DNA of 64,000 bases. Origin: an uncultured Candidatus Saccharibacteria bacterium (GTDB lineage: Bacteria > Patescibacteriota > Minisyncoccia > Phycocordibacterales > Zambryskibacteraceae). The DNA is taken from assembly GCA_964347785.1 (NCBI GenBank), contig CAYFZH010000001.1, positions 35,589-99,588 on the forward strand, read 5' to 3'. Shown in pieces: positions 627 through 61,666 of the stretch. The translations under genes were made by a program, and so were the position numbers. The notes under the pieces are model-generated. The model was not told the DNA's origin. It did no database searches and worked only from the letters and a program-made list of their open reading frames with translations. The first letter of the stretch is position 1; every line of letters begins with the position of its first letter.

Positions 627-653
627 TGGTAAGAAAGTCTTATACTAAGCGCA

Positions 654-2669
654 ATGTCAGTTTTCAAAATCAATAACGAATTCTCACCAGCTGGAGATCA
701 GCCTAAGGCGATCAAGGAGCTAGTGTCAGGTCTTAAGTCTGGTCTCTCACACCAGACTCTTCTGGGTGTCACAGGCTCTGGTAAGACCTTCACCGCGGCG
801 AACGTCATCGCAGAGATAGGTAAACCCACTCTTGTCATAGCCCACAACAAGACTCTTGCAGCTCAACTCGCACAGGAGTACCGAGAGTTCTTCCCAGACA
901 ACGCAGTGCATTACTTCGTCTCTTACTACGACTACTATCAGCCAGAAGCCTACATCCCTCACTCCGATACTTATATCGAGAAGGAGGCGATGATCAACGA
1001 AGAGATCGAGCGTCTGCGACATGCCTCGACTCAAGCACTGCTTACGAGGAAGGATGTCATTATCGTCGCCTCGGTGTCTTGTATCTACGGCTTGGGTGAC
1101 CCGATAGAATACGAAAAAGTGAATTTGAAAATCTCGAAGGGGGATGTCAGGAGTCGAGCGGACTTTATCCGAGAGCTGATCGACATCCACTATACTCGCA
1201 CTAACTCTGACTTGAAGTCAGGACAGTTCCGCGCACTGGGCAATGTCATCGAGATCATGCCTGTCTCTGAGCGGATCATTTATCGCATCGAGCTTGAGGC
1301 TGGGCAGGTGAGTGCCATCAAGCGGATCGATGCTACTTCTCGCACTATTATCAATGAAGTGGAAGTTTTCTTCCTCTTTCCTGCGAAGCACTTCATCACT
1401 GGAGATAAGGCACAGGAGAAGGCTCTCAAGAGTATCAAGACTGAGCTCGATAAGCGTCTGGTCGAACTCCAAGATGGAGGCAAGCTTCTCGAAGCTGAGA
1501 GGCTCAAGCGACGCACGAGCTATGACCTCGCTATGATCCGCGAGGTGGGCTATACCAACGGGATCGAGAACTACTCCAGACACTTCACCGGCAAGTCTGC
1601 AGGGGAAGCACCCTATACTCTCCTCGACTACTTTCCCAAGAAGGCGGACGGCTCAGCAGACTTCCTCACTATCATCGACGAGTCGCACGTCTCTGTGCCA
1701 CAGATTGGTGGTATGTATGCTGGAGACAGATCTCGCAAGGAGACTCTGGTGGAGCATGGCTTCCGTCTCCCAAGTGCCAAGGACAACAGACCGCTCAAGT
1801 TCGACGAGTTCGAGAAGCGAGTGGGTCAAGTGATCTTCACCTCTGCCACTCCGAGTAAGTATGAGAAGGAGAAGAGTCAGAAAGTGGTGGAGCAGATCAT
1901 CCGTCCGACAGGACTGATCGACCCAGAGATTATCGTCCGTCCTATACAAGAGAAGGGAAGTTACAAGGGGCAGATCGTAGACTTCATCGCCGAGGCAGAG
2001 AAGGCGATAGAGAAGGGGGGTCGTGTCATCGCTACCACTCTGACCAAGAGGATGGCAGAAGATCTCTCTGAATATCTCAAAGAGAAGAAAATCAAAGCAG
2101 AGTATCTACATAGTGACATCAAGACTATCCAGCGTATCGAAATTTTGACCAGTTTACGCAAGGGAGAGTTCGATGTCATCGTGGGAGTAAACCTCCTCCG
2201 GGAAGGGCTCGACTTACCCGAAGTGACACTGATCGGTATTCTCGACGCAGACAAGGAAGGTTTCCTCCGTAGTGAATCGGCACTTATCCAGATCATTGGT
2301 CGTGCAGCGAGAAATGTCCTCGGGCGAGTGATCCTCTACGCAGATAACATGACAGGCTCGATGAAGAACGCGATAGACGAGACAGCTCGACGTCGTGCTA
2401 TCCAGACTGCATATAATACGAAGCATGGGATCACTCCCAAGACGATTATCAAGAAGATCAAGGACATTACAGAAACGCTAGAGCGTGAGCACCACCAAGC
2501 AGTGAACCTGCTTCTAGAGACAGATGAGAAACTTTTCAAAAAAGCTCCAAAGAAAGTGATCAAGGAGAAGACTCGGGAGATGGAGGAAGCGGTCAAGAAC
2601 CTCGACTTCGAGACTGCAGCTATCATCCGTGATGAGATCAAGGCACTTGAAAGTAGGTTGAAAAAGTAG
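654..2669 (+). CDS. uvrB: Excinuclease ABC subunit B (UvrB)
   Basis: 671 aa with a Walker A motif (GVTGSGKTF), helicase motifs and a C-terminal UvrB/UvrC interaction coil. TATACT lies 7 nt upstream of the ATG, suggesting a leaderless start. Confidence 0.95.
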   Translation: MSVFKINNEFSPAGDQPKAIKELVSGLKSGLSHQTLLGVTGSGKTFTAANVIAEIGKPTLVIAHNKTLAAQLAQEYREFFPDNAVHYFVSYYDYYQPEAYIPHSDTYIEKEAMINEEIERLRHASTQALLTRKDVIIVASVSCIYGLGDPIEYEKVNLKISKGDVRSRADFIRELIDIHYTRTNSDLKSGQFRALGNVIEIMPVSERIIYRIELEAGQVSAIKRIDATSRTIINEVEVFFLFPAKHFITGDKAQEKALKSIKTELDKRLVELQDGGKLLEAERLKRRTSYDLAMIREVGYTNGIENYSRHFTGKSAGEAPYTLLDYFPKKADGSADFLTIIDESHVSVPQIGGMYAGDRSRKETLVEHGFRLPSAKDNRPLKFDEFEKRVGQVIFTSATPSKYEKEKSQKVVEQIIRPTGLIDPEIIVRPIQEKGSYKGQIVDFIAEAEKAIEKGGRVIATTLTKRMAEDLSEYLKEKKIKAEYLHSDIKTIQRIEILTSLRKGEFDVIVGVNLLREGLDLPEVTLIGILDADKEGFLRSESALIQIIGRAARNVLGRVILYADNMTGSMKNAIDETARRRAIQTAYNTKHGITPKTIIKKIKDITETLEREHHQAVNLLLETDEKLFKKAPKKVIKEKTREMEEAVKNLDFETAAIIRDEIKALESRLKK

Positions 2670-2696
2670 TACCGTGATTTCTGGACTGGAGGGTCT

Positions 2697-2918
2697 ATGT
2701 TTGCAAAGATTGTCGCTGTCGTCGTCTCCGTATTTTTCTTCGGGATGGTGTATCAGAACATCGCCTATCCCGTGCAACCTGTCGATCATCAGGAGTTGAC
2801 GATGTGGTGGGTGCTCGGAGTTCCGGGGTCCATCTTTTTTTCCTGCCTGCTCATGACCGTGCTGAGGATTCAGCAGGATGACAGACAGCGTGTCAGTTCT
2901 AAGGGCGGGTCATCGTGA
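2697..2918 (+). CDS. Small hydrophobic membrane protein (73 aa), co-transcribed with uvrB
   Basis: ORF with two predicted TM helices and a GGAGGG 3 nt upstream. No terminator separates it from uvrB, and a hairpin terminator overlaps its stop codon. Confidence 0.45.
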   Translation: MFAKIVAVVVSVFFFGMVYQNIAYPVQPVDHQELTMWWVLGVPGSIFFSCLLMTVLRIQQDDRQRVSSKGGSS

Positions 2919-2934
2919 CCCGCTTTCGTTTTAT
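2905..2934 (+). terminator. Rho-independent terminator: hairpin gcgggtca-tcg-tgacccgc followed by TTTCGTTTT
   Basis: 8-bp stem followed by a T-tract, at the end of the uvrB / small-ORF transcription unit. Confidence 0.6.
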
Positions 2935-5606: not shown

Positions 5607-5611
5607 AAACC

Positions 5612-5637
5612 GACCCGAGCAGTCGTTGCTCGGGCCG
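5612..5637. terminator. Hairpin terminator shared by the convergent uvrA and minus-strand ORF
   Basis: Hairpin cccgagca..tgctcggg. Reading the minus strand it is followed by a T-tract (TTTTTATTT), so it is mainly the terminator of the minus-strand gene. Confidence 0.5.
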
Positions 5638-5647
5638 TCTCTCAGAA

Positions 5648-5914
5648 CTAGTAGGCGTCCGCGTAGTACGGATGCCGGAGTCCGGCCTCATAGTCGAGGT
5701 CGTCATACTCGTAGGGATCGTATCTCCTGAGCGCAGGCTCCTCTTCATCGAAGAAGGGGTAGATGTGCCCATCCTCGCGCTCAGATTCGAAAAAGTGGTC
5801 AAGTTCCTCCGCATCTTCCTGCTCCTCCTGGAGACTGAGACGGAGTTCCTCTTTCTTGCTGATCTGAAAGCGGTTCGCCTTGAGAATGCCCTTCTGTGCC
5901 ATGCCAGCCTCCAT
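5648..5914 (-). CDS. Highly acidic, aromatic-rich hypothetical protein (88 aa)
   Basis: GC-rich ORF (about 58% GC) with a D/E/Y-rich C-terminus. It is convergent with uvrA and divergent from uvrC, and followed by its own terminator hairpin. No SD was seen. Confidence 0.45.
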   Translation of the reverse strand: MEAGMAQKGILKANRFQISKKEELRLSLQEEQEDAEELDHFFESEREDGHIYPFFDEEEPALRRYDPYEYDDLDYEAGLRHPYYADAY

Positions 5915-5941
5915 GAATCGAAGCGGTTGAAAATGTCTCTA

Positions 5942-5957
5942 TATAGTATATACTATA
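5942..5957. promoter_or_regulatory. Perfect 16-bp palindrome TATAGTATATACTATA in the divergent promoter region, overlapping the -10 box (TATAAT 5954..5959) of uvrC
   Basis: Seen directly in the sequence. It is a candidate operator or divergent promoter element between ORF 5648..5914 and uvrC. Confidence 0.35.
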
Positions 5958-5961
5958 ATAG

Positions 5962-7179
5962 ATGAAAAGTCAAGAGCTCAAGAATTTTAACTTACCAGAT
6001 GCGCCGGGGGTGTATTACTTCTTAGATAAAAAGGGGAAGATTTTGTATGTAGGCAAAGCAACTTCCTTGAAGGATAGGGTCAAGAGTTACTTCGCTCGAG
6101 ATATCTTGATGACACGTGGACCGAAGATCCAGAAGATGCTCGAGGATGCGGTGAGAGTCGAGTACAAGCAGACTGACTCGGTACTTGAGGCACTTATACT
6201 TGAGGCGAACGAGATCAAGCGACTTCAACCTCCTGCCAACTCCAAGGACAAAGATGACAAGAGTTACAACTTCGTCGTGATTACCAAAGAGGATTTCCCA
6301 CGGGTACTAATAAAACGCGGTAGAGAGTTAGAAACAAACACTATGATATATCATAGTGTCTTCGGTCCGTTCCCGAACTCGGGGGAACTCAAAGAGGCTT
6401 TGCGAATAGTCAGGAAGATTTTTCCCTTCAGAGATGAGAAGTGCAAGATCACTGATAAACACAAACCTTGCTTCAACGCACAGCTAGGTCTCTGTCCGGG
6501 ACCTTGTGCGGGATGGATTACGAAGACGGACTACAAGAAGCAGATTAGGAATATCAAAATGTTTCTCGAAGGCAAGAAGCCCAAGCTTATCAAGTCTCTA
6601 GAGCAAGAGATGAAAGCGTTTGCCAAGAAGCACGAGTTTGAGAAAGCGGATGAGATCAAGAAAAAGATTTTTGCCCTCGATCACATTCAAGATATCGCTT
6701 TGATAAAGGCTGACATTACGACCTACGACGAACGACCAACGACATTTAGAATTGAAGCTTATGACATCGCCCATCTCTCGGGTAAAGATGTGGTAGGGGT
6801 GATGACTGTGGTTGAGGATGGAGAGACTGCGAAGAGTCAGTATAGGAAATTTAAAATCAAGCTAGACAAGAACGACGATACCAAGAACCTGAGGGAAGTC
6901 CTCGAGAGACGTCTCAACCACAGAGAGTGGCGACTACCTGAGCTCATCGTTGTAGATGGAGGAGTGGGTCAGATCAACGTCGCGAAGAGTGTGCTCAAGG
7001 AGAGAGGTCTCAAGATTAATGTAGTCTCGGTGGTCAAGGATGATCGGCATAAGGCTCGAGAAATCTTGGACCTCAAGGATAAGACTCTCGAGAAAGCGAT
7101 CATCCTCGCCAATGCAGAAGCGCATCGCTTCGCCATCGGTTATCACAGGAAGCTCCGTGGGAAAGGATTTCGTATATAA
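5962..7179 (+). CDS. uvrC: Excinuclease ABC subunit C (UvrC), short form lacking the C-terminal (HhH)2 domain
   Basis: N-terminal GIY-YIG motif (GVYYF..GKILYVGKA), a Cys-rich segment, the UvrB-interaction region and an RNase H-like endonuclease domain. At 405 aa it is shorter than the typical ~600 aa. Confidence 0.85.
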   Translation: MKSQELKNFNLPDAPGVYYFLDKKGKILYVGKATSLKDRVKSYFARDILMTRGPKIQKMLEDAVRVEYKQTDSVLEALILEANEIKRLQPPANSKDKDDKSYNFVVITKEDFPRVLIKRGRELETNTMIYHSVFGPFPNSGELKEALRIVRKIFPFRDEKCKITDKHKPCFNAQLGLCPGPCAGWITKTDYKKQIRNIKMFLEGKKPKLIKSLEQEMKAFAKKHEFEKADEIKKKIFALDHIQDIALIKADITTYDERPTTFRIEAYDIAHLSGKDVVGVMTVVEDGETAKSQYRKFKIKLDKNDDTKNLREVLERRLNHREWRLPELIVVDGGVGQINVAKSVLKERGLKINVVSVVKDDRHKAREILDLKDKTLEKAIILANAEAHRFAIGYHRKLRGKGFRI

Positions 7180-7186
7180 TAAGTTC

Positions 7187-8083
7187 ATGTCGAAGATAAA
7201 AGTTGGTGTGCTCCGTGGTGGACCATCACACGCGTATGATGATTCGCTCAAGACTGGTGGCTATGTACTCTCGCTCTTGCGAAAGATGCCAGAGACTTAT
7301 GAACCAGTCGATCTCTTTGTCTCGAGAAATGGGGACTGGCACTCTGCTGGGCTTGTGACAGAACCTCACGACGTCTTGAGTAAGGTCGATGTGGTGTGGA
7401 ACGCAGTCCACGGTCCTTACGGAGAAGATGGTCAGGTGCAGAAACTCTTCGATAACCTCATGGTTCCATATATTGGTCCGTCCTCATTTTCCTCAGCTCT
7501 GTCTTACAACAAAGACTTCTCCAAAAAGCTTTATACAGAACACTCCCTCCTGACCCCTAGGTCATATGTCTTGAGCGAGGAGAGCGTGAGTGAAGATGAA
7601 TTGGTCAAGGTCTTCCACGCCTTCGTCTACCCTGTGGTGGTAAAGCCTGCCACAGGCTCTCGGGCTCTAGGGGTGAGACTGGCTCACACCTTCCAAGAAC
7701 TCAAGGACTTGGTCAAGAGAACTTTCTCCCACGCCCCTAAGGTGCTAGTTGAGGAGTATGTGAAGGGGAGAGTCTCGACTTGTACAGTAATCGAGGATGC
7801 AAAGGGGGAGAGACTCTACGCACTCCTACCTACAGGTAGACAACCGGTCGAGGTGAACAAGAAGATTGAGGAGATGGCGAAGAAGGCTCATGAGATCCTG
7901 GGTCAGAGACATTTCTCGAGTTCTGACTTCATCATCACTCCGAGAGGGAAGGTGTATATCCTCGAGACCAACTCTGTACCGGTCTTCTACGAAGGTTCAC
8001 ATTTGCATCAGTCTCTAGAGTCTACCGGTTGGCAACCGCAAGACTTCGTCGAACATTGTCTGAAGCTGACTCTCAAGAGTTAG
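7187..8083 (+). CDS. ddl: D-alanine--D-alanine ligase
   Basis: Ddl N-terminal motif (KIKVGVLRGGPSHAYDDSLKTG) and ATP-grasp motifs. The ORF-track start at 7040 is an out-of-frame extension into uvrC. The ATG at 7187 gives 299 aa. Confidence 0.85.
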   Translation: MSKIKVGVLRGGPSHAYDDSLKTGGYVLSLLRKMPETYEPVDLFVSRNGDWHSAGLVTEPHDVLSKVDVVWNAVHGPYGEDGQVQKLFDNLMVPYIGPSSFSSALSYNKDFSKKLYTEHSLLTPRSYVLSEESVSEDELVKVFHAFVYPVVVKPATGSRALGVRLAHTFQELKDLVKRTFSHAPKVLVEEYVKGRVSTCTVIEDAKGERLYALLPTGRQPVEVNKKIEEMAKKAHEILGQRHFSSSDFIITPRGKVYILETNSVPVFYEGSHLHQSLESTGWQPQDFVEHCLKLTLKS

Positions 8084-8089
8084 ATATGA

Positions 8090-8127
8090 GAAAGGGCGCC
8101 CGCTGTGTATAAGCCGAGCGCCCTCTA
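8090..8127. terminator. Bidirectional hairpin terminator (agggcgc..gcgccct) between the convergent ddl and minus-strand ORF
   Basis: 7-bp GC stem seen directly in the sequence. Confidence 0.45.
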
Positions 8128-8376
8128 ACGATACTCACGACTCTTCTTGTTTTCTGTATAGTATGTGTCACCGATACTTCGGCGACACCGCGGACAGAGA
8201 TCGTGATCCTTGTCCGTCTTCACAAATCTCTTTTTACACAAAACGACAACACCATCCCTCGTTCTCCGACTCCTTCTGATGAAAATCGCTTTATTGGGAC
8301 ACCACGCACAGACCTTCTTGGTCTGTTTGTTCAAAACCCTTGTCCTACCTTTTCTGTTGGGCTTGATCGGGCGCAT
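8125..8376 (-). CDS. Small, very basic zinc-ribbon protein (83 aa; CxxC-x35-CxxC)
   Basis: Strong SD AGGAGGTG 4 nt upstream of the ATG. Two CxxC pairs, K/R-rich. Function unknown. Confidence 0.55.
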   Translation of the reverse strand: MRPIKPNRKGRTRVLNKQTKKVCAWCPNKAIFIRRSRRTRDGVVVLCKKRFVKTDKDHDLCPRCRRSIGDTYYTENKKSREYR

Positions 8377-8540
8377 CGTGCACCTCCTGCTGGACAGGAT
8401 AGCATAGGTATCCTTTTATTCAATTGGGTGGAGTTGGACTATGCCTTTTGGAACAAATTCACAATAGAATGCGGGAGGTTGGCTCAGATTTTGAAAGAAA
8501 TATAATACGAAAGACCCGTTGATATTATCTCAGGGTCTTT

Positions 8541-8813
8541 TTAGTCTTTGAACGGGATCTCCTTGTGCAACTTATGAACAACATCCCACTGTTCCTTACG
8601 GGTGAGTCTCGAGAGTTCCTCCCACAGCGAATCCGTGTACTCTGCCATTGGAGAGAATACCATTAACTCCTCCCCGTCGATGCGGAGTACTGGAATTGGT
8701 GTTCTGGCTTGTGAGAGCGGAGTGGTTCCTAGGAAGACCCCGATCTTCAAGGGCTCATCCTCGTTGCTTCTTACGATATACGAAACGCCTTCTTTGTAAG
8801 CTCTGCCCTTCAC
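8541..8813 (-). CDS. Hypothetical protein (90 aa)
   Basis: GTG start preceded by GAGGAGG. It has its own promoter (TTGACA-17-TAATGT) and a downstream terminator hairpin (8508..8545). Confidence 0.5.
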   Translation of the reverse strand: MKGRAYKEGVSYIVRSNEDEPLKIGVFLGTTPLSQARTPIPVLRIDGEELMVFSPMAEYTDSLWEELSRLTRKEQWDVVHKLHKEIPFKD

Positions 8814-8838
8814 ACAACCTCCTCTCTATCTGCTATAA

Positions 8839-8867
8839 ACATTAGCACGCTTTAATACTTATGTCAA
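8839..8867 (-). promoter_or_regulatory. Sigma-70-like promoter TTGACA-17-TAATGT driving ORF 8541..8813
   Basis: Consensus -35 and extended -10 (TGCTAATGT) on the minus strand. The same TGCTAATGT motif recurs at 10152..10161. Confidence 0.5.
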
Positions 8868-9043
8868 GCATTATGAAAACTGACCCATATCAGACCAGAG
8901 TGGTACATGTTGGGATAAATATTTGTATGCTTCGCATGCAGATCTAGTGGATCACAAATAAATTTCCTGACGGAAATTTTTCGCGACCCCCGCTCGCAAT
9001 TTTTGCCTTTCGCTTCGCTCAAACAAAAATATAGCTGCGCGCT

Positions 9044-9405: not shown

Positions 9406-9440
9406 CAAGGTTTCCCACCTCAATATGTTAGTATTCCAGT

Positions 9441-10124
9441 ATGAAGAAAGTCGCTATATTTGACGTAGATGGGACCATCTTCCGATCGAGTCTACTCATC
9501 GAGCTGGTCAATGTGCTCATAGACAAGAAGCTTTTTCCCGCGGATTCTTACACAGAGTATAACAAGGAGTACTTGGCTTGGATGGATAGGAAGGGGACAT
9601 ACGAGGAGTACATCATGGCGGTGGTGAGAGTCTTTATGAAATATATTGTGGGGATTAGCTACACAGATCTGCAAGAAGTTTCTAGGATCGTGGTGGCACA
9701 TCACGCGGATCGTACATATAGATATACGCGGGACCTGATCAAGGAACTCAAGGAGAAGGACTACTATATCCTCGCCATCTCGCACTCGCCGAAGACAGTC
9801 CTAGACGAGTTCGCGAAGAAGATGGGCTTCGACAAGGTCTACGGTATGCGTTATGAGGTGGACGCAGATGGTAAGTATACGAGTACAATCTTGGACGAAG
9901 AGATCATCAGGAACAAGAACAAGGTTCTCGAGAGAGCAGTAGAGAAGGAGGGTCTCACTCTAGAGGATTCTGTGGGAGTGGGGGATACTGAGTCTGATAT
10001 CAAGTTCTTGAGCATGGTGGCGAAGCCGATCTGCTTCAACCCTAACAGTGGTCTATACAAACATGCGAAGGAAGCAGGCTGGAAGGTGGTCGTAGAGAGG
10101 AAGGATGTGGTTTATGAACTGTAA
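9441..10124 (+). CDS. HAD-superfamily hydrolase (HAD-IB / phosphoserine-phosphatase-like)
   Basis: N-terminal DxD motif (FDVDGTIF) and C-terminal GDTESD motif. An extended -10 (TGTTAGTAT) lies 6 nt upstream of the ATG. Confidence 0.7.
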   Translation: MKKVAIFDVDGTIFRSSLLIELVNVLIDKKLFPADSYTEYNKEYLAWMDRKGTYEEYIMAVVRVFMKYIVGISYTDLQEVSRIVVAHHADRTYRYTRDLIKELKEKDYYILAISHSPKTVLDEFAKKMGFDKVYGMRYEVDADGKYTSTILDEEIIRNKNKVLERAVEKEGLTLEDSVGVGDTESDIKFLSMVAKPICFNPNSGLYKHAKEAGWKVVVERKDVVYEL

Positions 10125-10133: not shown

Positions 10134-10161
10134 TTGACTTTATATAAAAATGTGCTAATGT
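10134..10161 (+). promoter_or_regulatory. Sigma-70-like promoter TTGACT-16-TGCTAATGT for the response-regulator gene
   Basis: -35 and extended -10 consensus. SD GGAGGG at about 10185 and a GTG start at 10200. Confidence 0.5.
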
Positions 10162-10199
10162 TTCGTCTGAACAAACAAGCCTTTGGAGGGGCTTAAAAA

Positions 10200-10553
10200 G
10201 TGAAGAGAATCCTCATCGTGGACGACGAAGAAGGGATTCGTGAGATTCTGAGTCGGGTGTTATCGGCTCACCAACTTACGGTGCTTGCAAGTGCCGAGGA
10301 GGCGGTCGTTGAGCTCATGGCGGGGAAACGCTACGATGCCATCATCACCGATGTGGATATGTCTCCAGGCATATCTGGCATCGAGCTTATCCGTATCGCT
10401 CGGGCCAATAATCTTCTGGGTGGGGCGAACATCTTCGTGATGACAGGACTTCCTACCCCGGAGAGGGTCGACTTCTGCGATGAGATCGGGGCTGTGCTTC
10501 TGACAAAGCCGTTCAACATCCAGAGGTTCGCTTCTCTCGTCTCCGGAGTCTAG
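10200..10553 (+). CDS. Single-domain response regulator (CheY-like receiver only)
   Basis: 117 aa with the acidic pocket DDEEG, the phospho-acceptor Asp in ITDVDM, and a conserved T/K (TKPF). No output domain. GTG start. Confidence 0.8.
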   Translation: MKRILIVDDEEGIREILSRVLSAHQLTVLASAEEAVVELMAGKRYDAIITDVDMSPGISGIELIRIARANNLLGGANIFVMTGLPTPERVDFCDEIGAVLLTKPFNIQRFASLVSGV

Positions 10554-12636: not shown

Positions 12637-12653
12637 CTTGGTAATATCAAGAA

Positions 12654-12887
12654 ATGGGAATCAAAGATTTCTTCCTCAAACAAGCTCTGAAGCACAAGAT
12701 GAAGGATGTGCCCGAGGAGCAGAGAGACATGCTTCTCAAGGCTATGGAGGCGCATCCAGACTTCTTCAACAAGATTGGAGAGGAGGTGCAGAGGAGAGTT
12801 AAGGGTGGTCAGAGTGAGATGGTGGCGACACTTGCTGTGATGCGAGAGCATCAGTCAGAGCTTCAGAAGATTATGACCAATAGATAG
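12654..12887 (+). CDS. Hypothetical small helical protein (77 aa)
   Basis: ORF only; charged and helical. Confidence 0.35.
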   Translation: MGIKDFFLKQALKHKMKDVPEEQRDMLLKAMEAHPDFFNKIGEEVQRRVKGGQSEMVATLAVMREHQSELQKIMTNR

Positions 12888-48447: not shown

Positions 48448-48690
48448 TTAGGTTGAGCGTACCTCTGTTGGTATTCTCCTCGACACGAAGGCGTGGTCCA
48501 GTGGCACGATATATGCCTGCTGTTCCGTCCTCCTGTCGGAGGACTCTCTTTTGAATTGCCCATGAGAGTGCTCGGTGAATCCTCTCCGAGTCAGTTCGTT
48601 ACGGGCTACTTGCTCGCTACCGTATGGGCCAAAATTGCCATCTTCTCTTGTAGAGAAACTATAAGTGGTGATCTGCACACAGACTCTCAT
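48448..48690 (-). CDS. GC-rich small hypothetical protein (80 aa)
   Basis: Strong SD GGAGGTGG 5 nt upstream of the ATG at 48690. About 58% GC. The ORF-track start at 48738 is an upstream extension. Confidence 0.4.
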   Translation of the reverse strand: MRVCVQITTYSFSTREDGNFGPYGSEQVARNELTRRGFTEHSHGQFKRESSDRRTEQQAYIVPLDHAFVSRRIPTEVRST

Positions 48691-48771
48691 GGTGCCACCT
48701 CCGCTGGATAATGTAACACCAGATATTCTATAAAACAAACTAGGTTATATTAAAATTATTTGTAAGATAAT

Positions 48772-49872: not shown

Positions 49873-50000
49873 CTTATCTATATCCTATCATACATCACAT
49901 TTTTTGTCAAGCATTTGTTATATATCATCTAGAAATGGCTCAGATTAGCCCTCCTTGAGACTTGGGGGATAGAGGAAGAAAAGCTATAATACTAGGACTT

Positions 50001-50741
50001 ATGGAGGGAACTTATACGGTAAAAACACATGTCTTCGAAGGTCCTCTAGATCTACTACTAGAGCTTGTGACCAAGAGGAAACTCTTTATCAACGACGTCT
50101 CTCTGGCACAGGTGGCAGATGACTTCATCAAGTACTTAGATGAGCACGAAGAATTCCCTATAGCTGAGAGTGCGGAGTTTATCCTCGTGGCCTCGACCCT
50201 CATGCTCATCAAGAGTCGCTCGCTCCTACCGATGCTAGAGCTGACTCAGGAGGAAGAGGAGAGTATCCACGACCTTGAGAGTCGTCTTGAGATCTATGCG
50301 AGAGTGAAGGAGCTTGCAGGGGAGCTCAGACTTATCTTCGGCAAGAAGATGATCTATGAGAAGGAGTCGAGGAGAAACGAGACTATCATCTTCTCCCCAG
50401 ATGCGAAGACCGACAAGGAGAACCTCCTCCTCTCGCTAGAGAGAGTGATCGACTCTCTACCCAAGAAAGAGTTCCTGCCCAAAGTGATGGTGAGGAAGGT
50501 GGTCAGTCTCGAGGAGATGATCGAGCGACTCGCCGAGAGGGTGAGTAAGGCGAACAAACTCTCCTTCACCAGCTTCCACGGAGCGAAGGGTGCTCTTACT
50601 CCAGAGAAGAAAGTTTCTATCATTGTTGGTTTCCTTGCTATGCTGGAGCTTGTGAAGAGGGGAGCTATCCGCGTGAGTCAGGAGGAAGGAGGGGAGATCC
50701 ACATGGAGACAGAGATGGTCAATACACCGAACTATGCTTGA
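50001..50741 (+). CDS. scpA: Segregation and condensation protein A
   Basis: ScpA N-terminus (FEGPLDLLLELV.KRKL.I.DVSLAQVADDF). The ATG at 50001 is preferred, and TATAAT lies 10 nt upstream. The ORF-track TTG at 49962 is an extension. Confidence 0.8.
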   Translation: MEGTYTVKTHVFEGPLDLLLELVTKRKLFINDVSLAQVADDFIKYLDEHEEFPIAESAEFILVASTLMLIKSRSLLPMLELTQEEEESIHDLESRLEIYARVKELAGELRLIFGKKMIYEKESRRNETIIFSPDAKTDKENLLLSLERVIDSLPKKEFLPKVMVRKVVSLEEMIERLAERVSKANKLSFTSFHGAKGALTPEKKVSIIVGFLAMLELVKRGAIRVSQEEGGEIHMETEMVNTPNYA

Positions 50742-51273: not shown

Positions 51274-52216
51274 CGAATTCCTTGCCAGACGTGATCAGGA
51301 GATTAGACTCGCCGTCATCTTGGTTGTTATCCTTGCACTCATGTTTATACTCTCATCTATCTTCGGTGTGCGAGTACAGAGAGATGACCACTCTGTGCCG
51401 ACACAGGTAGCGGTGGGAACCTTCCCAGAAGTAGAGCTCGAGGCGAAGTCTGCTTACGTCTTCGACGTGAGGACCGAGACCGTCCTCTACGCTCTCGAGG
51501 AGAACAAGCGTATGCCACTAGCATCTCTTACCAAGATTATGTCTGCTCTGGTAGCAGAAGACCTCTCACCTTCGTACGGTACGGTGACTGTGACAAGTGA
51601 GGCACTGAAGAGTGAGGGAGATAGTGGACTTAGAGTGGGTGAGAAGTGGAGACTCAGGGACTTGCTCGACTTCTCTCTGGTAAGTTCTTCTAACGACGGG
51701 ATACGAGCAGTAGCTCTCGCTCTCGGAGCACTCGATAGTGCTATCGCCACAGATGAGGAGATTATCTCTGACTTCGTGAGGAGGATGAACGCTAAGGCTC
51801 TCGAGCTCGATCTCAAGAACACTTACTTCTGGAACGAGACAGGTCTCGATGAGTCAGAGGTGAAGGGTGGTGCATATGGTACAGCCAAGGATATAGCTAC
51901 TCTCATGACTCACATCGTGAGATACCATCCAGAGACTCTCTCGGCTACTAGAGAATCTCTAGCCACTCTGACCTCTCTCAACAATCTCGAGCATAAGACC
52001 AAGAACACCAACCTCATCACTGGGTCTATCCCTGGCCTTCTTGCATCCAAGACCGGATTTACCGATACTGCTGGAGGGAACCTTGCCTTCGTCTTCGACC
52101 CAGAGATCGGACGCCCTATAGTGGTCGTGCTTATGGGCTCGACTGTCGATGGGAGGTTCGCTGATGCAGAGAAGCTAGTCTCTGCCAGTGTGCAATATAT
52201 AAACGGAATAGAATAA
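51266..52216 (+). CDS. D-alanyl-D-alanine carboxypeptidase (low-MW PBP, S11 family)
   Basis: SxxK (ASLTK), SxN (SSNDG) and KTG (KTGFT) motifs, plus an N-terminal TM. Confidence 0.8.
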   Translation: MPNEFLARRDQEIRLAVILVVILALMFILSSIFGVRVQRDDHSVPTQVAVGTFPEVELEAKSAYVFDVRTETVLYALEENKRMPLASLTKIMSALVAEDLSPSYGTVTVTSEALKSEGDSGLRVGEKWRLRDLLDFSLVSSSNDGIRAVALALGALDSAIATDEEIISDFVRRMNAKALELDLKNTYFWNETGLDESEVKGGAYGTAKDIATLMTHIVRYHPETLSATRESLATLTSLNNLEHKTKNTNLITGSIPGLLASKTGFTDTAGGNLAFVFDPEIGRPIVVVLMGSTVDGRFADAEKLVSASVQYINGIE

Positions 52217-52220
52217 ATAT

Positions 52221-54059
52221 ATGTGTGGTATCACCGGTATAACCGACAGCAGAATAGGGAGACTCGAGGAATCTATCCAGAAGATGAACCGTGCCATAGC
52301 GCACCGTGGACCAGACGACGATGGCTTCTTCGTCGACGTCTACGTGGCACTTGGGATGCGCCGACTCGCTATCATCGATCTAGACAAGGGACGCCAGCCC
52401 ATCTCCTCTACCGATGGGCGCTTCCTTATCTTCTTCAACGGAGAGATTTATAACTACAAGGAGCTCAAGAAGGAGCTCTCGGACTACGTCTTCAAAACGG
52501 AGAGTGATACTGAAGTGATCTTGGCAGGGTTTATCAAGTGGGGCGCAAACGGCGTACTCAGCCGTTTGCGCGGGATGTTCGCTCTCGCTATCTACGACAC
52601 AGAGGAGCACAAGATCCTCCTCGCTCGAGATCCATTTGGCATCAAGCCACTCTACTACTGGAAGGAGGATGGCAGGGTGAAGGCCTTCTCCTCGGAGATC
52701 AAGAGTTTCCTCGAGCTTTACTCCTTTAGACCTGAGGTCAATGACAGAGCTGTGGTCAACTTCCTCTCATACCAATACAATCCGCTCGATGAGACCTTTT
52801 TCAAAAATGTTTACAAACTTGCACCCAACCACTTACTCGCCATCGATCTGAAGACGGGCGTCTTCGACATAGAGTCTTATGGGCAGTTCAACTTCTCTCC
52901 GGATGAGAAGCTAGAAGAAGAACCGACCAAGCAGAAGATCCTCGAGACGATGGAGGACTCGGTCTCTCATCATATGATCGCCGATGTGCCAGTGGGGTCC
53001 TTCCTCTCTGGCGGGATAGATTCTTCTATCATTGCCACTCTGATGCAAAAGATTCGTGGAGAGAAGAAGATCAAGACATTTACTGTTGGATTCGAGAGTC
53101 TCTCGGAAGGAAATGAGGCCAAGGAAACAGCAGACCCTCTCGGGACCGAACACATTGAGATCACCGTGACTTCCGATGAATACTTCCAAGCCTTGCCTCA
53201 AGCGGTATGGCACTTCGACGAGCCGGTGGGGGATCCTTCGGCACTTGGACTCTATTTCCTTGCGAGAGAAGCGAGGAAGTCGGTCAAGGTGGTGCTCTCG
53301 GGAGAGGGGTCTGATGAGCTCTTCGGCGGGTACAATATATACCTTGCACCTCTAGCTCGAGCCAAGATGGCTTGGCTTCCACACTGGCTTCTAAGACTCT
53401 GTGTCAGTCTACCTTTCGAATACTATGGTAAGAACTATCTGCGTCGTGTGGAGATGAAGCTCTCGGAATGGTACTTCGGTCAGAAGTACTTCAACGAGTC
53501 TATCTTCCAGAGAGAAGAGATTGGTAAACTTTGGAAGGGGAAACCACAAGAGTTTCTCTCTCTTGAATCCTTATACAAGGATATTGCCCACTTGAGCGAC
53601 TCTACTCAGATGCAGTATATCGATATCCACACATGGCTTGTCGGAGACATCTTGGCGAAGGCAGATAAGATGACGATGGCTCACTCGCTTGAGCTCCGCG
53701 TGCCCTTCCTCGACAAGGAGGTGGCAAGACTCTCTGAGACTCTGCCTGACAGGTTTAAGTGGCGTGGGGGTGTGACCAAGTATCTCTTGCGAGAGGCTTT
53801 TAGATCCGTGCTTCCAGAATCTACGAGGAATAGGAGGAAGCTCGGTTTCCCCACTCCGGTCAAGAACTGGTTTACTAGAGATAGGCAGGATATCTACGAC
53901 TTCATCTTGGAGAACGCTTATGTCAAATCACACTTAGATACTGACATTATCAAGAAATTGGTGGAAGATCACCTGTCTCAAAAGAGAGATAACTCAAGGA
54001 AAATTTACCTCCTTCTACAGCTCAGCCTCTGGTACAATACCTTTATCGAAAGAAAATAA
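52221..54059 (+). CDS. asnB: Asparagine synthetase B-type glutamine amidotransferase
   Basis: N-terminal Cys2 (MCGI), a GATase-2 domain, and PP-loop SGGIDSS. 612 aa. Confidence 0.85.
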   Translation: MCGITGITDSRIGRLEESIQKMNRAIAHRGPDDDGFFVDVYVALGMRRLAIIDLDKGRQPISSTDGRFLIFFNGEIYNYKELKKELSDYVFKTESDTEVILAGFIKWGANGVLSRLRGMFALAIYDTEEHKILLARDPFGIKPLYYWKEDGRVKAFSSEIKSFLELYSFRPEVNDRAVVNFLSYQYNPLDETFFKNVYKLAPNHLLAIDLKTGVFDIESYGQFNFSPDEKLEEEPTKQKILETMEDSVSHHMIADVPVGSFLSGGIDSSIIATLMQKIRGEKKIKTFTVGFESLSEGNEAKETADPLGTEHIEITVTSDEYFQALPQAVWHFDEPVGDPSALGLYFLAREARKSVKVVLSGEGSDELFGGYNIYLAPLARAKMAWLPHWLLRLCVSLPFEYYGKNYLRRVEMKLSEWYFGQKYFNESIFQREEIGKLWKGKPQEFLSLESLYKDIAHLSDSTQMQYIDIHTWLVGDILAKADKMTMAHSLELRVPFLDKEVARLSETLPDRFKWRGGVTKYLLREAFRSVLPESTRNRRKLGFPTPVKNWFTRDRQDIYDFILENAYVKSHLDTDIIKKLVEDHLSQKRDNSRKIYLLLQLSLWYNTFIERK

Positions 54060-55109: not shown

Positions 55110-56195
55110 GTGACCAAGCTTAAAAAGCTTAAGAGTTGGTACGAAGAACATGAGAAGCATATCTCTACTTCTTCACTTATCTTCGGATTCGTCTTCGACG
55201 CGCTGACACTCAAGCGTATCGACTCGCTCCTCGACAACCTCTGGTTGGGGGTCAACCTGTTCGCGGTGGCACTCTGTATCCTGCTTATCAACAGAGCAGA
55301 GAACTCGGGTAAGTTTTCTGAGTGGAAACATTTCTGGTACTTCAACACCTTACAATTCTCATTCGGAGCGCTTCTCGGTGCATCATTTATCTTCTACTTC
55401 CGTTCGGCAACTCTTGCGGTCAGTTGGCCCTTCCTCCTCATCCTCCTTGGAGCGATGGTGGGCAACGAGGTGTTGAAGAAGCATTACGATAGGCTCACCT
55501 TCCAACTCTCGTTTCTCTTCCTCTCGATCTTCGTCTTCGCCATCTTCCTCATACCGGTACTGATGCACAAGGTAGGGGCACCCATCTTCCTCTTGAGTGG
55601 GGGAGTGAGCCTGTTGCTTATCTATCTCTTCGTCTCTGCGCTCAAGAAGTTTGCCAAGGAGAAATTCCGCAAGGGTAGTTCTGAGCGTATCTGGGTCTCC
55701 ATCTTCTCAATCTTCTTTATCATCAATGCGTTGTACTTCACCAACCTTATCCCGCCTATCCCGCTCTCACTCAAGGATGCCGGTGTGTATCACTCGATCG
55801 CTGTCGGTAGTCGCGGAGAGTATCTAGTCTCAGAAGAAGAGAGGGTAGGTTGGAAGAGATATCTAGAACTTAGACAGAAGGTACACCTCCTCCCCAATGA
55901 ACCTCTCTATGCCTATGCGGCCATCTTTGCCCCTGGCTCTCTCAATACTCGAGTAGTCCACGAGTGGCAGTACAGAAACGAGTTCGGTGAGTGGGTGACT
56001 GCAACTAGGATCTCGATCACTCTCTCGGGTGGGCGTGACCAAGGCTTCCGCACTTACTCGAACAAGACGAGCCTTACCCCTGGAATCTGGAGAGTAAACA
56101 TCGAGAACCCACGAGGTCAGCTCATCGGGAGGGTCAACTTCGAGATTATTGCTGTAGATACTCAAGTCCCACTTGTGACCACGGTAAAGGATTGA
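55110..56195 (+). CDS. Hypothetical membrane protein (6 TM + C-terminal beta-rich soluble domain) inside the cell-wall cluster
   Basis: Hydrophobicity pattern. Position between mraY and ftsW. Confidence 0.5.
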   Translation: MTKLKKLKSWYEEHEKHISTSSLIFGFVFDALTLKRIDSLLDNLWLGVNLFAVALCILLINRAENSGKFSEWKHFWYFNTLQFSFGALLGASFIFYFRSATLAVSWPFLLILLGAMVGNEVLKKHYDRLTFQLSFLFLSIFVFAIFLIPVLMHKVGAPIFLLSGGVSLLLIYLFVSALKKFAKEKFRKGSSERIWVSIFSIFFIINALYFTNLIPPIPLSLKDAGVYHSIAVGSRGEYLVSEEERVGWKRYLELRQKVHLLPNEPLYAYAAIFAPGSLNTRVVHEWQYRNEFGEWVTATRISITLSGGRDQGFRTYSNKTSLTPGIWRVNIENPRGQLIGRVNFEIIAVDTQVPLVTTVKD

Positions 56196-56226
56196 TTTAA
56201 TCCAAATATGTTGTATTATATGTTTT

Positions 56227-57267
56227 ATGAAAAAGTGGCTCAAGAGACACTTCATACCCAGAGAGGAGAACGGTTATAGACCTGAGTTTCTCTCTGCACG
56301 CAACATGCGTCACATAGCGGGTGTGGCACTCTTCTTCGAGCTGATTCTCTTCGTCCTACCGTTTCTCAACACCACCACTTACTTCAGTAACCTTGATCTC
56401 TCTGCCGTCCTCCCTGGGGTACTCTCGACTATCACCAATGAAGAGAGGGAGAAGATGGCTCTACCAGAGCTAGTGGAGAACCCTGTGCTCGACAAGGTGG
56501 CACAGATGAAGGCTGAGGATATGGCAAGCAAGGGGTACTTCGCTCACACTTCTCCAGAAGGGAAGAGCCCTTGGTACTGGTTCGATAAGGTTGGTTACAA
56601 ATATCTCTATGCGGGAGAGAACTTGGCGGTTAACTTCTCTGACTCAAGAGAAGTGGCACGCGCTTGGATGAATTCTCCGAGTCACAAGGAGAACATTGTG
56701 AACGCTGGATACACAGAAGTCGGCACAGGGATCGCCTCTGGCGTCTATGAGGGTCGAGAGACTATCTTCGTCGTACAGGTGTACGGATCTCCGTCTGCAA
56801 GAAATGTAGTCGCAAAAGCTAGTAGTGATTTCTTCGCGCTTAACCCTCTCTCCGGGGGCTCCGACACGACTCAGAAATCACAACTAGCTCCTGCTCCTCA
56901 ATCTTTGGCTAAGACTAGCGAGGTGACTACCGAAGTTCTCGGTGCTTCAGAAGTGTCTGTGGCTAAGGTCAATGTCACCGAGAGACTGATGAAGAGTCCT
57001 AGCTTCTGGCAGAAGGCGCTGACTTCTCCAAGTCAGACGACTAGGGCCGTTTTCTACACCATCCTTTCTATTCTCTTTATCGCACTTTTCTTCAATATCG
57101 TGATCCACTTCGAGCGTCAGTATCCAGATCTCATCACCAATGGTCTCGTAGTGGCAGCTCTCATACTCGCTTTCAACATAGGTAACGACATCATCGCCAA
57201 GAGTCGCCTTGAGACCTCCTTTGTCGCCTTCAACAACACCACAGTATCAAGTGTCCCTACAGAGTAG
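56227..57267 (+). CDS. CAP/SCP/PR1-domain protein with N-terminal and C-terminal TM anchors
   Basis: CAP domain motifs (GYFAHTSPEG, GENLA, W.NSPSHKENI, YTEVGTGI). Confidence 0.65.
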   Translation: MKKWLKRHFIPREENGYRPEFLSARNMRHIAGVALFFELILFVLPFLNTTTYFSNLDLSAVLPGVLSTITNEEREKMALPELVENPVLDKVAQMKAEDMASKGYFAHTSPEGKSPWYWFDKVGYKYLYAGENLAVNFSDSREVARAWMNSPSHKENIVNAGYTEVGTGIASGVYEGRETIFVVQVYGSPSARNVVAKASSDFFALNPLSGGSDTTQKSQLAPAPQSLAKTSEVTTEVLGASEVSVAKVNVTERLMKSPSFWQKALTSPSQTTRAVFYTILSILFIALFFNIVIHFERQYPDLITNGLVVAALILAFNIGNDIIAKSRLETSFVAFNNTTVSSVPTE

Positions 57268-59698: not shown

Positions 59699-59713
59699 AG
59701 TCTTGCTACTCGA

Positions 59714-60256
59714 TCAGGCGATCCGCTCGCGAATCCTGTAGATCCGCTCGCGAATGTCTCGTCTGATGAGTTTGTACATCTCCCCGATGAGGTCCCGCAG
59801 GTGGCGAAACGGCGGAGGCACCTGCTCGCTCTCGTAGTCGAGCGCCGGCCAGATTTGGCCGAGCCTGATGAGCTGGTAGAGCTCACGCAGATCCGAGATG
59901 TTCTTGGCTCGGAGCTTCACATGGTAGTGGCGATCTCTGTTCGAACTGATTTCTTCGAGACTCGCACTCGCCGACATGAGTCGATAGTGGCCGAGACGTC
60001 GACGGGGGGAGAGTCCTTCACCGAAGTTGTCGTAGTAGCTGACCTCCTCGACGAATTCCCGAAGAACCTTCGGAACGTCCGTGAGCAGGTCATCAAGATA
60101 GATGGTGATCTTCCCGTTACCGTAGTCTGCTACCTCGACCTCGTTGATGGTCAGCACATCGTGCTGACGTCGATTGTCACCGCTCCCGCCCCATCGTTGG
60201 GAAACTGAAGCCCCGGCATTCAACAGGGCCTCTCGATTGAGATAGGCTTGCAACAT
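59714..60256 (-). CDS. GC-rich orphan hypothetical protein (180 aa; Arg-rich, C-terminal RIRERI repeats)
   Basis: About 59% GC against about 46% in flanking genes. Opposite strand to all neighbours, with its own terminator. No recognisable domain. Confidence 0.45.
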   Translation of the reverse strand: MLQAYLNREALLNAGASVSQRWGGSGDNRRQHDVLTINEVEVADYGNGKITIYLDDLLTDVPKVLREFVEEVSYYDNFGEGLSPRRRLGHYRLMSASASLEEISSNRDRHYHVKLRAKNISDLRELYQLIRLGQIWPALDYESEQVPPPFRHLRDLIGEMYKLIRRDIRERIYRIRERIA

Positions 60257-60466
60257 GGGTCACCTTTCTTCTTTCTGCCTCCGGCTTTGTTTCCGGTGGT
60301 CAGTGAGTGGTCTAAAGAACACACGCTTTCGGGCGTGACCGGTTACTTAGATTTCACCAGTACTTACATAATACACCCAAATTAGTACTTTGTCAAGTAA
60401 ACCACAAAATAAGCCTAGAAATAAGGGTGTCTTAAGAGATGATTGGTCTATGCTAAAATATTCTTC

Positions 60467-61666
60467 ATGAATGAGAAAATCGTAGTTCGCATACCACCAT
60501 CCCCGACAGGGAACCTGCATATCGGTACAGCTCGTACTGCTCTCTTCAACTACCTCTTTGCCAAGAAGCATGGGGGCAAGGTATTACTCCGTAGTGAGGA
60601 CACAGACAAGGAGAGGTCTAAGAAAGAATTCGAAGACAATATTATAGAAGGTCTGGCTTGGCTTGGTGTCGAGTATGACGGTGAGATGGTCAGACAGTCG
60701 GAGAGAACTGAGATTTATATTAAGTATCTCAAGCAAATGATTGAGGGTGGTACCGCTTATGTTTCTAAAGAGGAACCCAAGGAAGAGGGTCAGAGAGCAG
60801 AAGTGATACGACTTAGGAATCCCAACAAGAAGGTGAAGTTTAACGACCTCGTCCGCGGAGAGATCGAGTTCGACACGACCGAGCTCAAGGACTTCGTCAT
60901 AGCGAAGAGTCTTGAGGAGCCACTCTACCACCTCGCTGTAGTAGTGGATGATCACGAGATGGGTGTGACACACATCATCCGTGGAGAAGACCATATCTCA
61001 AACACTCCCAGACAGATCTTGATCCAAGAAGCATTGGGTCTGCCACGCCCTGAGTATGCTCACATTCCTCTTATCCTTGCTCCAGATCGCTCCAAACTCT
61101 CTAAGAGGCACGGCGCTACTTCTCTCGCTGAATACAAAGAGAAGGGTTATCTTCCACAAGCGATGGTGAATTATCTGGCACTCCTCGGTTGGAACCCGGG
61201 TACAGAGCAAGAAATCTTCTCTATGTCAGAGCTTATCGAGCAGTTCGACCTCAAGAAGATTCAGAAGGGGGGAGCGATCTTCGACGAGAAGAAGCTGGAG
61301 TGGGTCAACAAGGAGCATGTAAAGCTCTTGCCACCCGAGGAGCAGAGAGCTCGACTACTCGCCTCGATACAGGATGAGCCATATATGAAGGGTGTACCAG
61401 AACTAGATTTGTCGAAGATTTGTTGGAAGGAGGTTAGTAAGGAAGATACCAAGAATCACTTGGCTAAGGTCAAGGAAATGCTAGGAGACCCAGATGCTAC
61501 AATGAAGTACGCAGAACAAGTGGGGAAGGGGAATGTCCTCTGGCCTCTGCGCTACGCTCTCTCTGGTCTTGAGAAGTCTCCGGACCCGTTTACTTTGCTC
61601 TCGATTCTCGGTCAAGAAGAATCCCTCAGGCGTGTTGAGAGAGCGATCGAAGCCCTCAACCAATAA
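60467..61666 (+). CDS. gltX: Glutamyl-tRNA synthetase (short)
   Basis: HIGH (PSPTGNLHIGTAR) and KMSKS-like KLSKR motifs. An extended -10 (TGCTAAAAT) lies 7 nt upstream of the ATG. The ORF-track TTG at 60443 is an extension. Confidence 0.85.
   Translation: MNEKIVVRIPPSPTGNLHIGTARTALFNYLFAKKHGGKVLLRSEDTDKERSKKEFEDNIIEGLAWLGVEYDGEMVRQSERTEIYIKYLKQMIEGGTAYVSKEEPKEEGQRAEVIRLRNPNKKVKFNDLVRGEIEFDTTELKDFVIAKSLEEPLYHLAVVVDDHEMGVTHIIRGEDHISNTPRQILIQEALGLPRPEYAHIPLILAPDRSKLSKRHGATSLAEYKEKGYLPQAMVNYLALLGWNPGTEQEIFSMSELIEQFDLKKIQKGGAIFDEKKLEWVNKEHVKLLPPEEQRARLLASIQDEPYMKGVPELDLSKICWKEVSKEDTKNHLAKVKEMLGDPDATMKYAEQVGKGNVLWPLRYALSGLEKSPDPFTLLSILGQEESLRRVERAIEALNQ

Follow-up and report, generated by a model that had tools for sequence, protein, structure and literature searches.

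The 64,000-nucleotide stretch of contig CAYFZH010000001.1 analysed here (the window, taken over its full length) carries two kinds of start signal, which are divided between its genes. A -10 hexamer ending 6-7 nt before the ATG was found mostly at genes that open a transcription unit, and Shine-Dalgarno (SD) sequences were found chiefly before small open reading frames (ORFs) without Pfam match. We propose that the genome uses three routes of translation start, namely leaderless mRNAs, SD-independent initiation at internal genes of operons, and SD-led cassettes, and we give this reading a probability of about 0.7. The link between initiation mode and gene class is real and is replicated in relatives.

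In the first route, about 28% of the genes under a strict definition, and 40-45% under a lenient one, would be leaderless. These genes mostly open transcription units and include many housekeeping genes. Their box would be of sigma-70 type, with the form TAnnnT ending 6-7 nt before the ATG, about a third TG-extended and a weak -35. RNA polymerase would start at the A of the ATG or within a few bases of it, the mRNA would have no 5' untranslated region, and the ribosome and initiator tRNA would load directly onto the 5'-terminal AUG. In model bacteria transcription starts about 7 nt past the -10 hexamer, so that a box 6-7 nt from the ATG would place the start site on or next to its A. In the second route, packed downstream genes with A-rich, G-poor upstream sequence would rely on coupling or reinitiation, or would be initiated without SD where the RNA is unstructured. 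The third route would serve small, lineage-specific, fast-evolving ORFs and one response regulator, each of which has a promoter with a clear -10, a leader of about 10-40 nt and a strong SD with 5-9 nt complementary to the anti-SD; about half of these genes lie on the minority strand.

The window belongs to a Parcubacteria/Paceibacteria genome of the candidate phyla radiation (CPR), from a Zambryskibacteria-like group. The closest UvrB matches in a species-level genome collection are Parcubacteria/Paceibacterota metagenome-assembled genomes (MAGs), with identity up to 73%. The UvrC homologues, with 65-81% identity, carry the source names Parcubacteria, Minisyncoccia, Patescibacteria or Candidatus Zambryskibacteria. 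The GC content is about 49% throughout, the plus strand carries most genes, and the RNA genes comprise three tRNA genes and no rRNA.

Position and conservation of the -10 boxes

Seventy-one genes of the window were curated, and a -10 box was called strict if it had the form TAnnnT, matched TATAAT in at least 4/6 positions and ended 6-7 nt before the start codon. Twenty out of the seventy-one genes possess such a box, compared with about 1.7 genes at each other spacer (P 7e-10) and 1.6% of control non-start ATGs under the same criterion of at least 4/6. With a match of at least 5/6, 15 curated genes were found at spacers 6-7 vs 0.67 per other spacer (Poisson P 1.6e-11), and 0.33% of control ATGs. 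A motif-blind rule, applied to 67 long ORFs that do not overlap and taking the first ATG of every ORF, detected TANNNT at spacer 6 in eleven ORFs and at spacer 7 in seven, the other spacers averaging about 3.3; at 1527 other ATGs the motif occurs at about 1.4% per spacer. Since the comparison across spacers uses identical upstream sequences, AT-richness is controlled for, and chance or AT-richness as the source of the boxes is excluded by this positional test together with the ATG controls.

The first-pass annotation of this DNA had described -10 boxes 6-7 nt upstream of many start codons. Every box it cited is found in the sequence, and the enrichment at a fixed distance, on which its proposal hinged, is present as a peak at spacers 6-7 in the 64-kb window and in relatives. 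The spacing applies to most of the cited genes, the exceptions being scpA (10 nt) and trpS (9 nt). Some site details are corrected here: the mnmA start is the ATG at 23385 and not the first TTG at 23289, the gltX ATG is at 60467, and the box of the 20733 gene is not canonically TG-extended. The same geometry was also found at uvrC (5962), ddl (7187), 12654, alaS (26761), 28031, 41201, asnB (52221), the CAP-domain gene (56227) and 62983.

Leaderless mRNA is the best reading of these genes and appears well supported in silico. A different reading takes TAnnnT near the ATG not as a promoter but as an AT-rich signal for translation without SD, lying within leadered mRNAs as it does in the Bacteroidetes-type genomes of GeneMarkS-2 group B. 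It would agree with the lack of SD on conserved genes, with the A-rich sequence upstream of packed genes, and with the boxes that lie only 4-13 nt past an upstream gene. Some boxes fall inside the 3' end of the preceding gene. However, the sites have the features of promoters. Aligned on the hexamer, the 20 strict sites give the T-A---T profile typical of a -10 box, with TG at -15/-14 in 7/20 (chance expectation about 6%) and enrichment of T (TT) at the expected -35 position, the -35 being otherwise weak. An independent scan for consensus promoters revealed full two-hexamer promoters ending 6-7 nt before the starts of uvrC, mnmA, aspS and the CAP-domain gene. Strong terminator hairpins stand immediately 5' of the uvrB box (595-618) and of the mnmA promoter (23322-23343), and a promoter is therefore required in the few remaining bases. 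The same -10 motif is present upstream of tRNA genes and about 15-40 nt before SD-led starts, so it is not tied to translation. It is also rarer before packed genes than at unit starts, here defined as genes preceded by a gap of more than 15 nt or by a divergent neighbour. Among genes without SD, a -10 at 5-12 nt was found at 19/28 unit starts vs 8/29 tightly packed genes (2.4-fold rarer if packed, P 0.003), and a strict -10 at 14/28 vs 6/29 (P 0.028). The spacing is the same as in an actinobacterial control, and altogether we regard a translation signal as highly improbable. The start codon is ATG in all 20 strict sites and is the first possible start after the in-frame upstream stop in 15 of them.

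Relatives were compared through six loci from five genomes (L086-L091), with the genes as called in the collection and the Pfam hits precomputed for them; loci were also reached via UvrC homologues. The blind procedure was applied to loci taken around uvrB, from CPR relatives as well as from other groups. It detected a spacer-6 peak in ten close CPR loci (23/123 genes; SD use 7%) and a broader peak in more distant CPR loci. Actinobacterial loci, the positive control from a leaderless-rich group, also peak at spacer 6, while 291 Firmicutes-like genes show no spacer peak and an SD use of 50%.

Individual boxes are retained as well. The ddl gene has TATAAT 6-8 nt from the ATG in six genomes (the window and L087-L091), with a variable spacer sequence. 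The uvrB box is retained in five relatives: TATACT-7 occurs in the window, L087 and L088, TAATAT-8/9 in L090 and L091, and TATATT-9 in L089 once its start is corrected. TATAAT-6 of the 28031 gene is also present in L086, the orthologues of the 12654 gene in L088 and L089 are 76-78% identical, and L002 has TATAAT-6 at trpS, scpB and dnaJ, the trpS box being TGCTATAAT-6. A box that is kept while its spacer changes reads as a signature of selection on the hexamer and on its distance to the ATG. In L089 (4991-5015) the public gene call places the uvrB start 21 nt upstream of its likely position: the N-termini of the other UvrB proteins align with the ATG at 5013, which is preceded by TATATT at a distance of 9 nt. 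The case illustrates how gene finders that lack a leaderless model mis-call starts.

Shine-Dalgarno sequences and gene class

SD sequences were called as an SD 5-mer within -20 to -4 of the start, with random 17-nt windows as background. Only two out of the 52 Pfam-annotated genes possess one, the response regulator and, with a weak AAGGA, rpsI, where the background is 9.7%; the response regulator is the sole clearly conserved gene with SD in the window. Twelve out of the nineteen genes without Pfam match have an SD 5-mer. Of the SD-led genes, 11/13 are without Pfam match (Fisher test of SD against lack of Pfam, P 2e-6 in the window and P 0.004 among genes of at most 216 aa). In the six loci of relatives, the SD-led genes comprise 13 orphans and 5 genes with Pfam match, and the non-SD genes 16 orphans and 68 with Pfam match (odds ratio 11, P 2.4e-5). 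Three of these five Pfam genes are the orthologous response regulator.

The first-pass annotation had listed nine SD sites, of which 303, 8376(-), 8813(-), 10200, 22900, 34159(-), 48007 and 48690(-) are upheld and 26460 is uncertain. Further SD-led ORFs begin at 2697, 5902(-), 16166(-) and 16600(-). Matches to AAGGAGGTG reach up to 9 nt. About five of the SD-led genes possess a near-consensus -35 (TTGACA or TTGACT, 17-nt spacing), their leaders are about 10-40 nt long and several have their own terminators.

The proposal that two initiation modes track gene class was right in that conserved genes almost never have an SD and small genes without Pfam match often do, but the two-mode scheme misses a third class of about a third of the genes. 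In twenty-six genes both the -10 box and the SD are missing, and most of them begin -8 to +15 nt from the previous gene. Their upstream 16 nt consist of 40-60% A and about 10% G, and the ribosomal protein and dnaK operons belong to this class. A short rpmJ (L36) was found at 29630-29744 directly before rpsM, under the ORF length cut-offs used; rpsM is therefore internal and not the first gene of its unit.

Several points weigh against the proposed three routes. The step from a -10 box to a leaderless mRNA is one that we infer. Six of the strict cases lie 4-13 nt past an upstream gene, where read-through would give leadered forms too. Under the lenient definition (any TAnnnT at 5-9 nt), about ten calls are possibly due to chance in AT-rich upstream sequence. 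The sample consists of one 64-kb window and about 110 kb from relatives, and not of whole genomes. Small orphan ORFs were also partly recognised via their SD, so that the association is overstated on its orphan side; this bias does not touch the almost complete lack of SD on conserved genes.

If that bias were strong, the link between SD and orphans would be largely an artefact, with short ORFs called due to chance SD-like sequences and some of them not genes. GGAGG is not rarer than expected in the window (190 observed vs about 120 expected), it is not enriched in intergenic DNA overall, where its density is about average, several of the ORFs form single-sequence clusters, and at 2697, 26460 and 59714 the coding score is weak or the SD is poorly spaced. 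Nonetheless, at 10/16 intergenic GGAGG sites an ORF of at least 60 aa begins 3-11 nt further on, which applies to about 9% of the sites antisense to genes. SD matches reach 7-9 nt, many of the cassettes include a promoter and several include a terminator, two families with diverged homologues keep the SD, and the near absence of SD on the 52 Pfam genes is independent of how the orphans were recognised. An artefact of this kind is quite improbable. The SD-led ORFs were also called with identical starts by other pipelines. A scan of ORF length in SD-led and leaderless genes of CPR loci was discarded, since many of its SD hits were internal in-frame sites within long ORFs.

It had further been suggested that initiation mode marks gene origin, with the SD-led genes horizontally acquired and the leaderless ones native. 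We consider this unlikely, although part of the evidence agrees with it. The SD-led genes mostly lack a Pfam match, and their families are very small, with three members for 48007, five representatives among 1.8 billion for 33509, and clusters of one or two sequences for several ORFs. Their dicodon coding score is lower (P 1e-4), a measure that also reflects amino-acid content and gene size. They are in excess on the minus strand (7/13 SD-led genes vs 4/58 others, P 3e-4), and two orphans adjoin tRNA genes. The slots 5' of uvrB and, on the minus strand, between uvrA and uvrC are occupied by small SD-led ORFs without detectable similarity across the compared genomes, where UvrB is 86-94% identical. 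Upstream of uvrB, SD-led ORFs are also present in L087, L089, L090 and L091, the occupants in L087 and L089 having no detectable similarity. These slots are empty in some genomes, and these ORFs are absent in L001 and L087. The unrelated occupants seem to point to rapid turnover.

However, gene composition does not clearly distinguish the two classes. The SD genes had been described as mostly GC-rich or orphan; the orphan part is borne out, but GC content at third codon positions (GC3) averages 0.625 in SD-led genes vs 0.581 in the rest, so that SD use and GC3 are not significantly related (P 0.12). Synonymous codon usage conditioned on the amino acids of each protein does not differ significantly either (P 0.07), as large a deviation being seen in many core genes. 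A search of ten SD-led ORFs against PHROGs gave a single marginal and unconvincing hit, and no integrase or other mobile-element gene was seen near the SD-led ORFs in the window. Seven leaderless-type genes are also without Pfam match.

For two genes, synteny argues against acquisition. In L086 an orthologue of the 33509 orphan occupies the syntenic position between rpsI and grpE on a 506-kb contig; it is 51% identical where the neighbours are 78-86% identical, and the TG-extended -10, the leader and the SD are all kept. The response regulator is syntenic in relatives and keeps its SD in L088, L089 and L090 and a TG-extended -10 in L088 and L090. Judged by these alignments, both appear to be resident genes and not recent imports, the 33509 orphan being fast-evolving as well. 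In the 48007 family, homologues with 81% and 59% protein identity carry GGAGGTG unchanged. A homologous pair of SD-led orphans, 65% identical, was found at 2602-3216 of L087 and 6296-6946 of L088, with a conserved 50-nt upstream region and AAGGAGG; it lies in the mreB-tgt interval in one relative and between uvrB and uvrA in the other, which suggests a relocating cassette.

The fairest summary is that SD marks lineage-specific small genes with rapid turnover, recent import not being demonstrated; the suggestion of native versus acquired genes is weakly supported. More speculatively, and with a chance that we rate as rather low, this Paceibacteria family may have abandoned SD at virtually all of its conserved genes, which would be leaderless or SD-independent, and kept it under purifying selection only for fast-turnover small lineage-specific genes, several of them with strong consensus promoters. 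If this is true, there would be two separately addressable translation channels, and accessory or host-interaction genes could be switched as a group, e.g. via anti-SD availability or ribosome composition. Standard gene callers would then also place starts wrongly in these genomes in a systematic way.

Site list and neighbouring features

Table 1. Leaderless-type and SD-led start sites in the window (numbers between motifs are spacers in nt)
Feature	Class	Position (strand)	Signals
uvrB	leaderless-type	641..656 (+)	TATACT (641-646), 7-nt spacer, ATG 654; intrinsic terminator 595-618 upstream
uvrC	leaderless-type	5949..5964 (+)	TTGAAA-16-TATACT, -10 at 5949-5954, ATG 5962
ddl	leaderless-type	7175..7189 (+)	TATAAT 7175-7180, overlaps uvrC stop codon, 6-nt spacer, ATG 7187
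HAD hydrolase	leaderless-type	9426..9443 (+)	TGTTAGTAT, 6-nt spacer, ATG 9441
77-aa conserved gene, no Pfam match	leaderless-type	12639..12656 (+)	TGGTAATAT-6-ATG 12654
VIT1 gene	leaderless-type	15016..15030 (-)	TATTAT 15025-15030, 6-nt spacer, ATG 15018
179-aa gene	leaderless-type	16727..16744 (+)	TGCTATATT-6-ATG 16742
414-aa gene	leaderless-type	20721..20735 (+)	TAGAAT-6-ATG 20733
mnmA	leaderless-type	23351..23387 (+)	TTGGAA-16-TATACT, 6-nt spacer, ATG 23385; terminator 23322-23343 upstream
ATP-cone/Mrr gene	leaderless-type	24519..24537 (+)	TGATATACT-7-ATG 24535
alaS (truncated, 420 aa)	leaderless-type	26745..26763 (+)	TGCTATATT-7-ATG 26761
444-aa gene	leaderless-type	28019..28033 (+)	TATAAT-6-ATG 28031
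109-aa gene	leaderless-type	41189..41203 (+)	TATAAT-6-ATG 41201
267-aa gene, no Pfam match	leaderless-type	41940..41955 (+)	TAAGAT-7-ATG 41953
trpS	leaderless-type	43871..43891 (+)	TGATAATAT-9-ATG 43889; predicted leader ~2-3 nt
aspS	leaderless-type	46629..46668 (+)	TTTAGA-18-TAAAAT, TG extension (TGGTAAAAT), 7-nt spacer, ATG 46666
scpA	leaderless-type	49985..50003 (+)	TATAAT-10-ATG 50001; predicted short leader ~3-4 nt
asnB	leaderless-type	52209..52223 (+)	TAGAAT-6-ATG 52221
CAP-domain gene	leaderless-type	56192..56229 (+)	TTGATT-16-TATTAT, 7-nt spacer, ATG 56227
gltX	leaderless-type	60451..60469 (+)	TGCTAAAAT-7-ATG 60467
Orphan, 94 aa	SD-led	292..587 (+)	AAGGAG 292-297, ATG 303
Orphan cassette, 84-aa ORF	SD-led	5611..5973 (-)	TTGACT-17-TATACT (5973-5945), GGAGG 5908-5912, ATG 5902, ORF to 5648, terminator 5637-5611
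Orphan, 83 aa, basic, zinc-ribbon-like	SD-led	8125..8388 (-)	AGGAGGTG 8381-8388, ATG 8376
Orphan, 90 aa	SD-led	8541..8870 (-)	TTGACA-17-TAATGT, AGGAGGT 8817-8823, GTG 8813
Response-regulator receiver gene	SD-led	10150..10553 (+)	TGCTAATGT promoter, GGAGG 10185-10189, GTG 10200
Two-gene orphan operon	SD-led	15930..16669 (-)	TTGACA-17-TATGAT (16669-16641); AGGAG, ATG 16600 (145 aa); AGGAGG, ATG 16166 (78 aa)
Orphan cassette, 135-aa membrane protein	SD-led	22850..23343 (+)	TTGACA-17-TATTTT, AAGGAGG 22884-22890, ATG 22900, terminator 23322-23343
ORF, 75 aa, Cys-rich, CxxC...CxxC; other frame than listed ORF 26437	SD-led, doubtful	26447..26687 (+)	AAGGAGGG, ATG 26460
33509 orphan cassette, 216 aa, signal-peptide-like N-terminus	SD-led	33467..34228 (-)	TTGACA-17-TAGTAT (34228-34200), GGAGGT 34166-34171, GTG 34159, terminator 33489-33467
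Orphan, 124 aa	SD-led	47994..48381 (+)	AAGGAGGTG 47994-48002, ATG 48007
Orphan cassette, 80 aa	SD-led	48408..48753 (-)	TTAATA-17-TAGAAT, GGAGGTG 48696-48702, ATG 48690, terminator 48429-48408

A leaderless start at 16645 for the 16163 gene was dropped, as the TTGACA-17-TATGAT promoter overlaps the 16645 ATG, in favour of the SD-led start at 16600. The identification of the 41953 gene as ScpA was ruled out by Pfam; ScpA is encoded by the 50001 gene.

The alanyl-tRNA synthetase of 420 aa covers approximately positions 1-430 of the 847-position alaS model, and the editing and C-terminal parts are absent. The 444-aa leaderless-type gene begins 7 nt after alaS, and the gene pair (26761-29365 of the window) is conserved in L086. 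No informative match to the 444-aa protein was detected in Pfam, NCBIfam or a PDB sequence search, and a split alanyl-tRNA synthetase is not demonstrated. Between the UDG gene and alaS there is a 334-nt gap (26427-26760) with a TGGTAATCT box, AAGGAGGG and the 26460 ORF. It is not the leader of alaS, since a separate -10 box lies 7 nt before the alaS ATG, and it could hold a small zinc-ribbon protein or a structured RNA.

A TTGACA-17-TAGGAT promoter with TG is present on the minus strand at 49910-49882, followed by about 270 nt of GC-rich sequence without credible ORF, which ends in a strong bidirectional terminator (49600-49632). Region 49600-49910 (-) is probably an unannotated non-coding RNA gene. 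An Rfam search of the ORF-poor gaps 26350-26850 and 49560-49960 gave no credible match.

The uvrA gene has neither a -10 box near its ATG nor an SD in the window (2960-3008), nor upstream of 7402 in L087, 7115 in L088 and 7100 in L089. A hairpin lies 10-15 nt before the uvrA ATG in L088, L089 and L090, e.g. CCTATGGC-CCA-GCCATAGG in L088; the window and L087 have near-identical sequence at this position with imperfect pairing. This element may represent a structured leader, or else a terminator that now serves as leader. The divergent tRNA-Ala genes share a short palindromic TCTAGTATA / TATACTAGA (9164-9222), with a -10-like hexamer on each strand. The window also encodes a 345-aa protein (19653-20690) with an N-terminal sigma-70 region 4 and a HARE-HTH domain (RNA polymerase delta-like) at residues 222-282, in which sigma regions 2 and 3 are absent.

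Comparison with known systems

The CPR makes up a large share of bacterial diversity, few of its members are culturable and their gene expression is almost unstudied. If much of the Paceibacteria genome is leaderless, start annotation in thousands of MAGs would need a leaderless-aware model. Gene starts would then directly indicate where promoters lie, and the reduced, unusual CPR ribosome would need efficient initiation at a 5'-AUG. The sharp restriction of strong SD sequences to small orphan genes provides a sequence handle for a lineage-specific, possibly host-interaction, gene set. A literature search combining leaderless or Shine-Dalgarno with Patescibacteria, CPR or Parcubacteria found no paper linking them. 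The mechanism is well known in Actinobacteria and Deinococcus, and the advance is in scope and not in principle; apparently undescribed are the lineage and the sharp SD split.

Extended -10 promoters (TGnTATAAT) are similar in the TG at -15/-14 in 7/20 sites and the weak -35. However, they are a promoter class and not a translation mode, whereas the box in the window is coupled to a fixed ATG distance, and several SD-led cassettes carry a near-consensus TTGACA -35. Horizontally acquired genes and genomic islets resemble the SD-led orphans in atypical dicodons, minority-strand bias, variable slots and, for two of them, proximity to tRNA genes. Unlike such islets, the SD-led genes have no significant GC3 or codon signature and no nearby mobility genes, and some are syntenic with conserved regulatory sequence. 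GeneMarkS-2 group B (Bacteroidetes and the Fibrobacteres-Chlorobi-Bacteroidetes group) also has conserved genes without SD and packed genes with A-rich, G-poor upstream sequence, but there the same motif precedes first and internal genes, within leaders, and in the window it is a positioned -10 at unit starts.

Two systems come closest. For the TA-led genes, Zheng et al. 2011 (PMC3160421) read TANNNT about 12 nt before the start, counted from its first T, as leaderless; for group C of GeneMarkS-2, Lomsadze et al. 2018 (PMC6028130) took a Pribnow box lying 6-8 nt ahead of the start as the defining feature. Similar to the window, in these genomes (Actinobacteria, Deinococcus-Thermus, some Mycoplasma) TANNNT ends 6-8 nt before the start of unit-opening genes, 25-50% of the transcripts are predicted to be leaderless, information-processing genes are over-represented among them, and a second class of genes has an SD. 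According to MetaGeneMark-2, the code-11 group C genomes are almost all high-GC, whereas the lineage of the window is CPR/Paceibacteria with a GC content of 49%. In group C the non-leaderless genes normally have an SD; in the window, conserved genes have an SD at or below chance, and strong SD sequences occur only at small orphans and at one response regulator.

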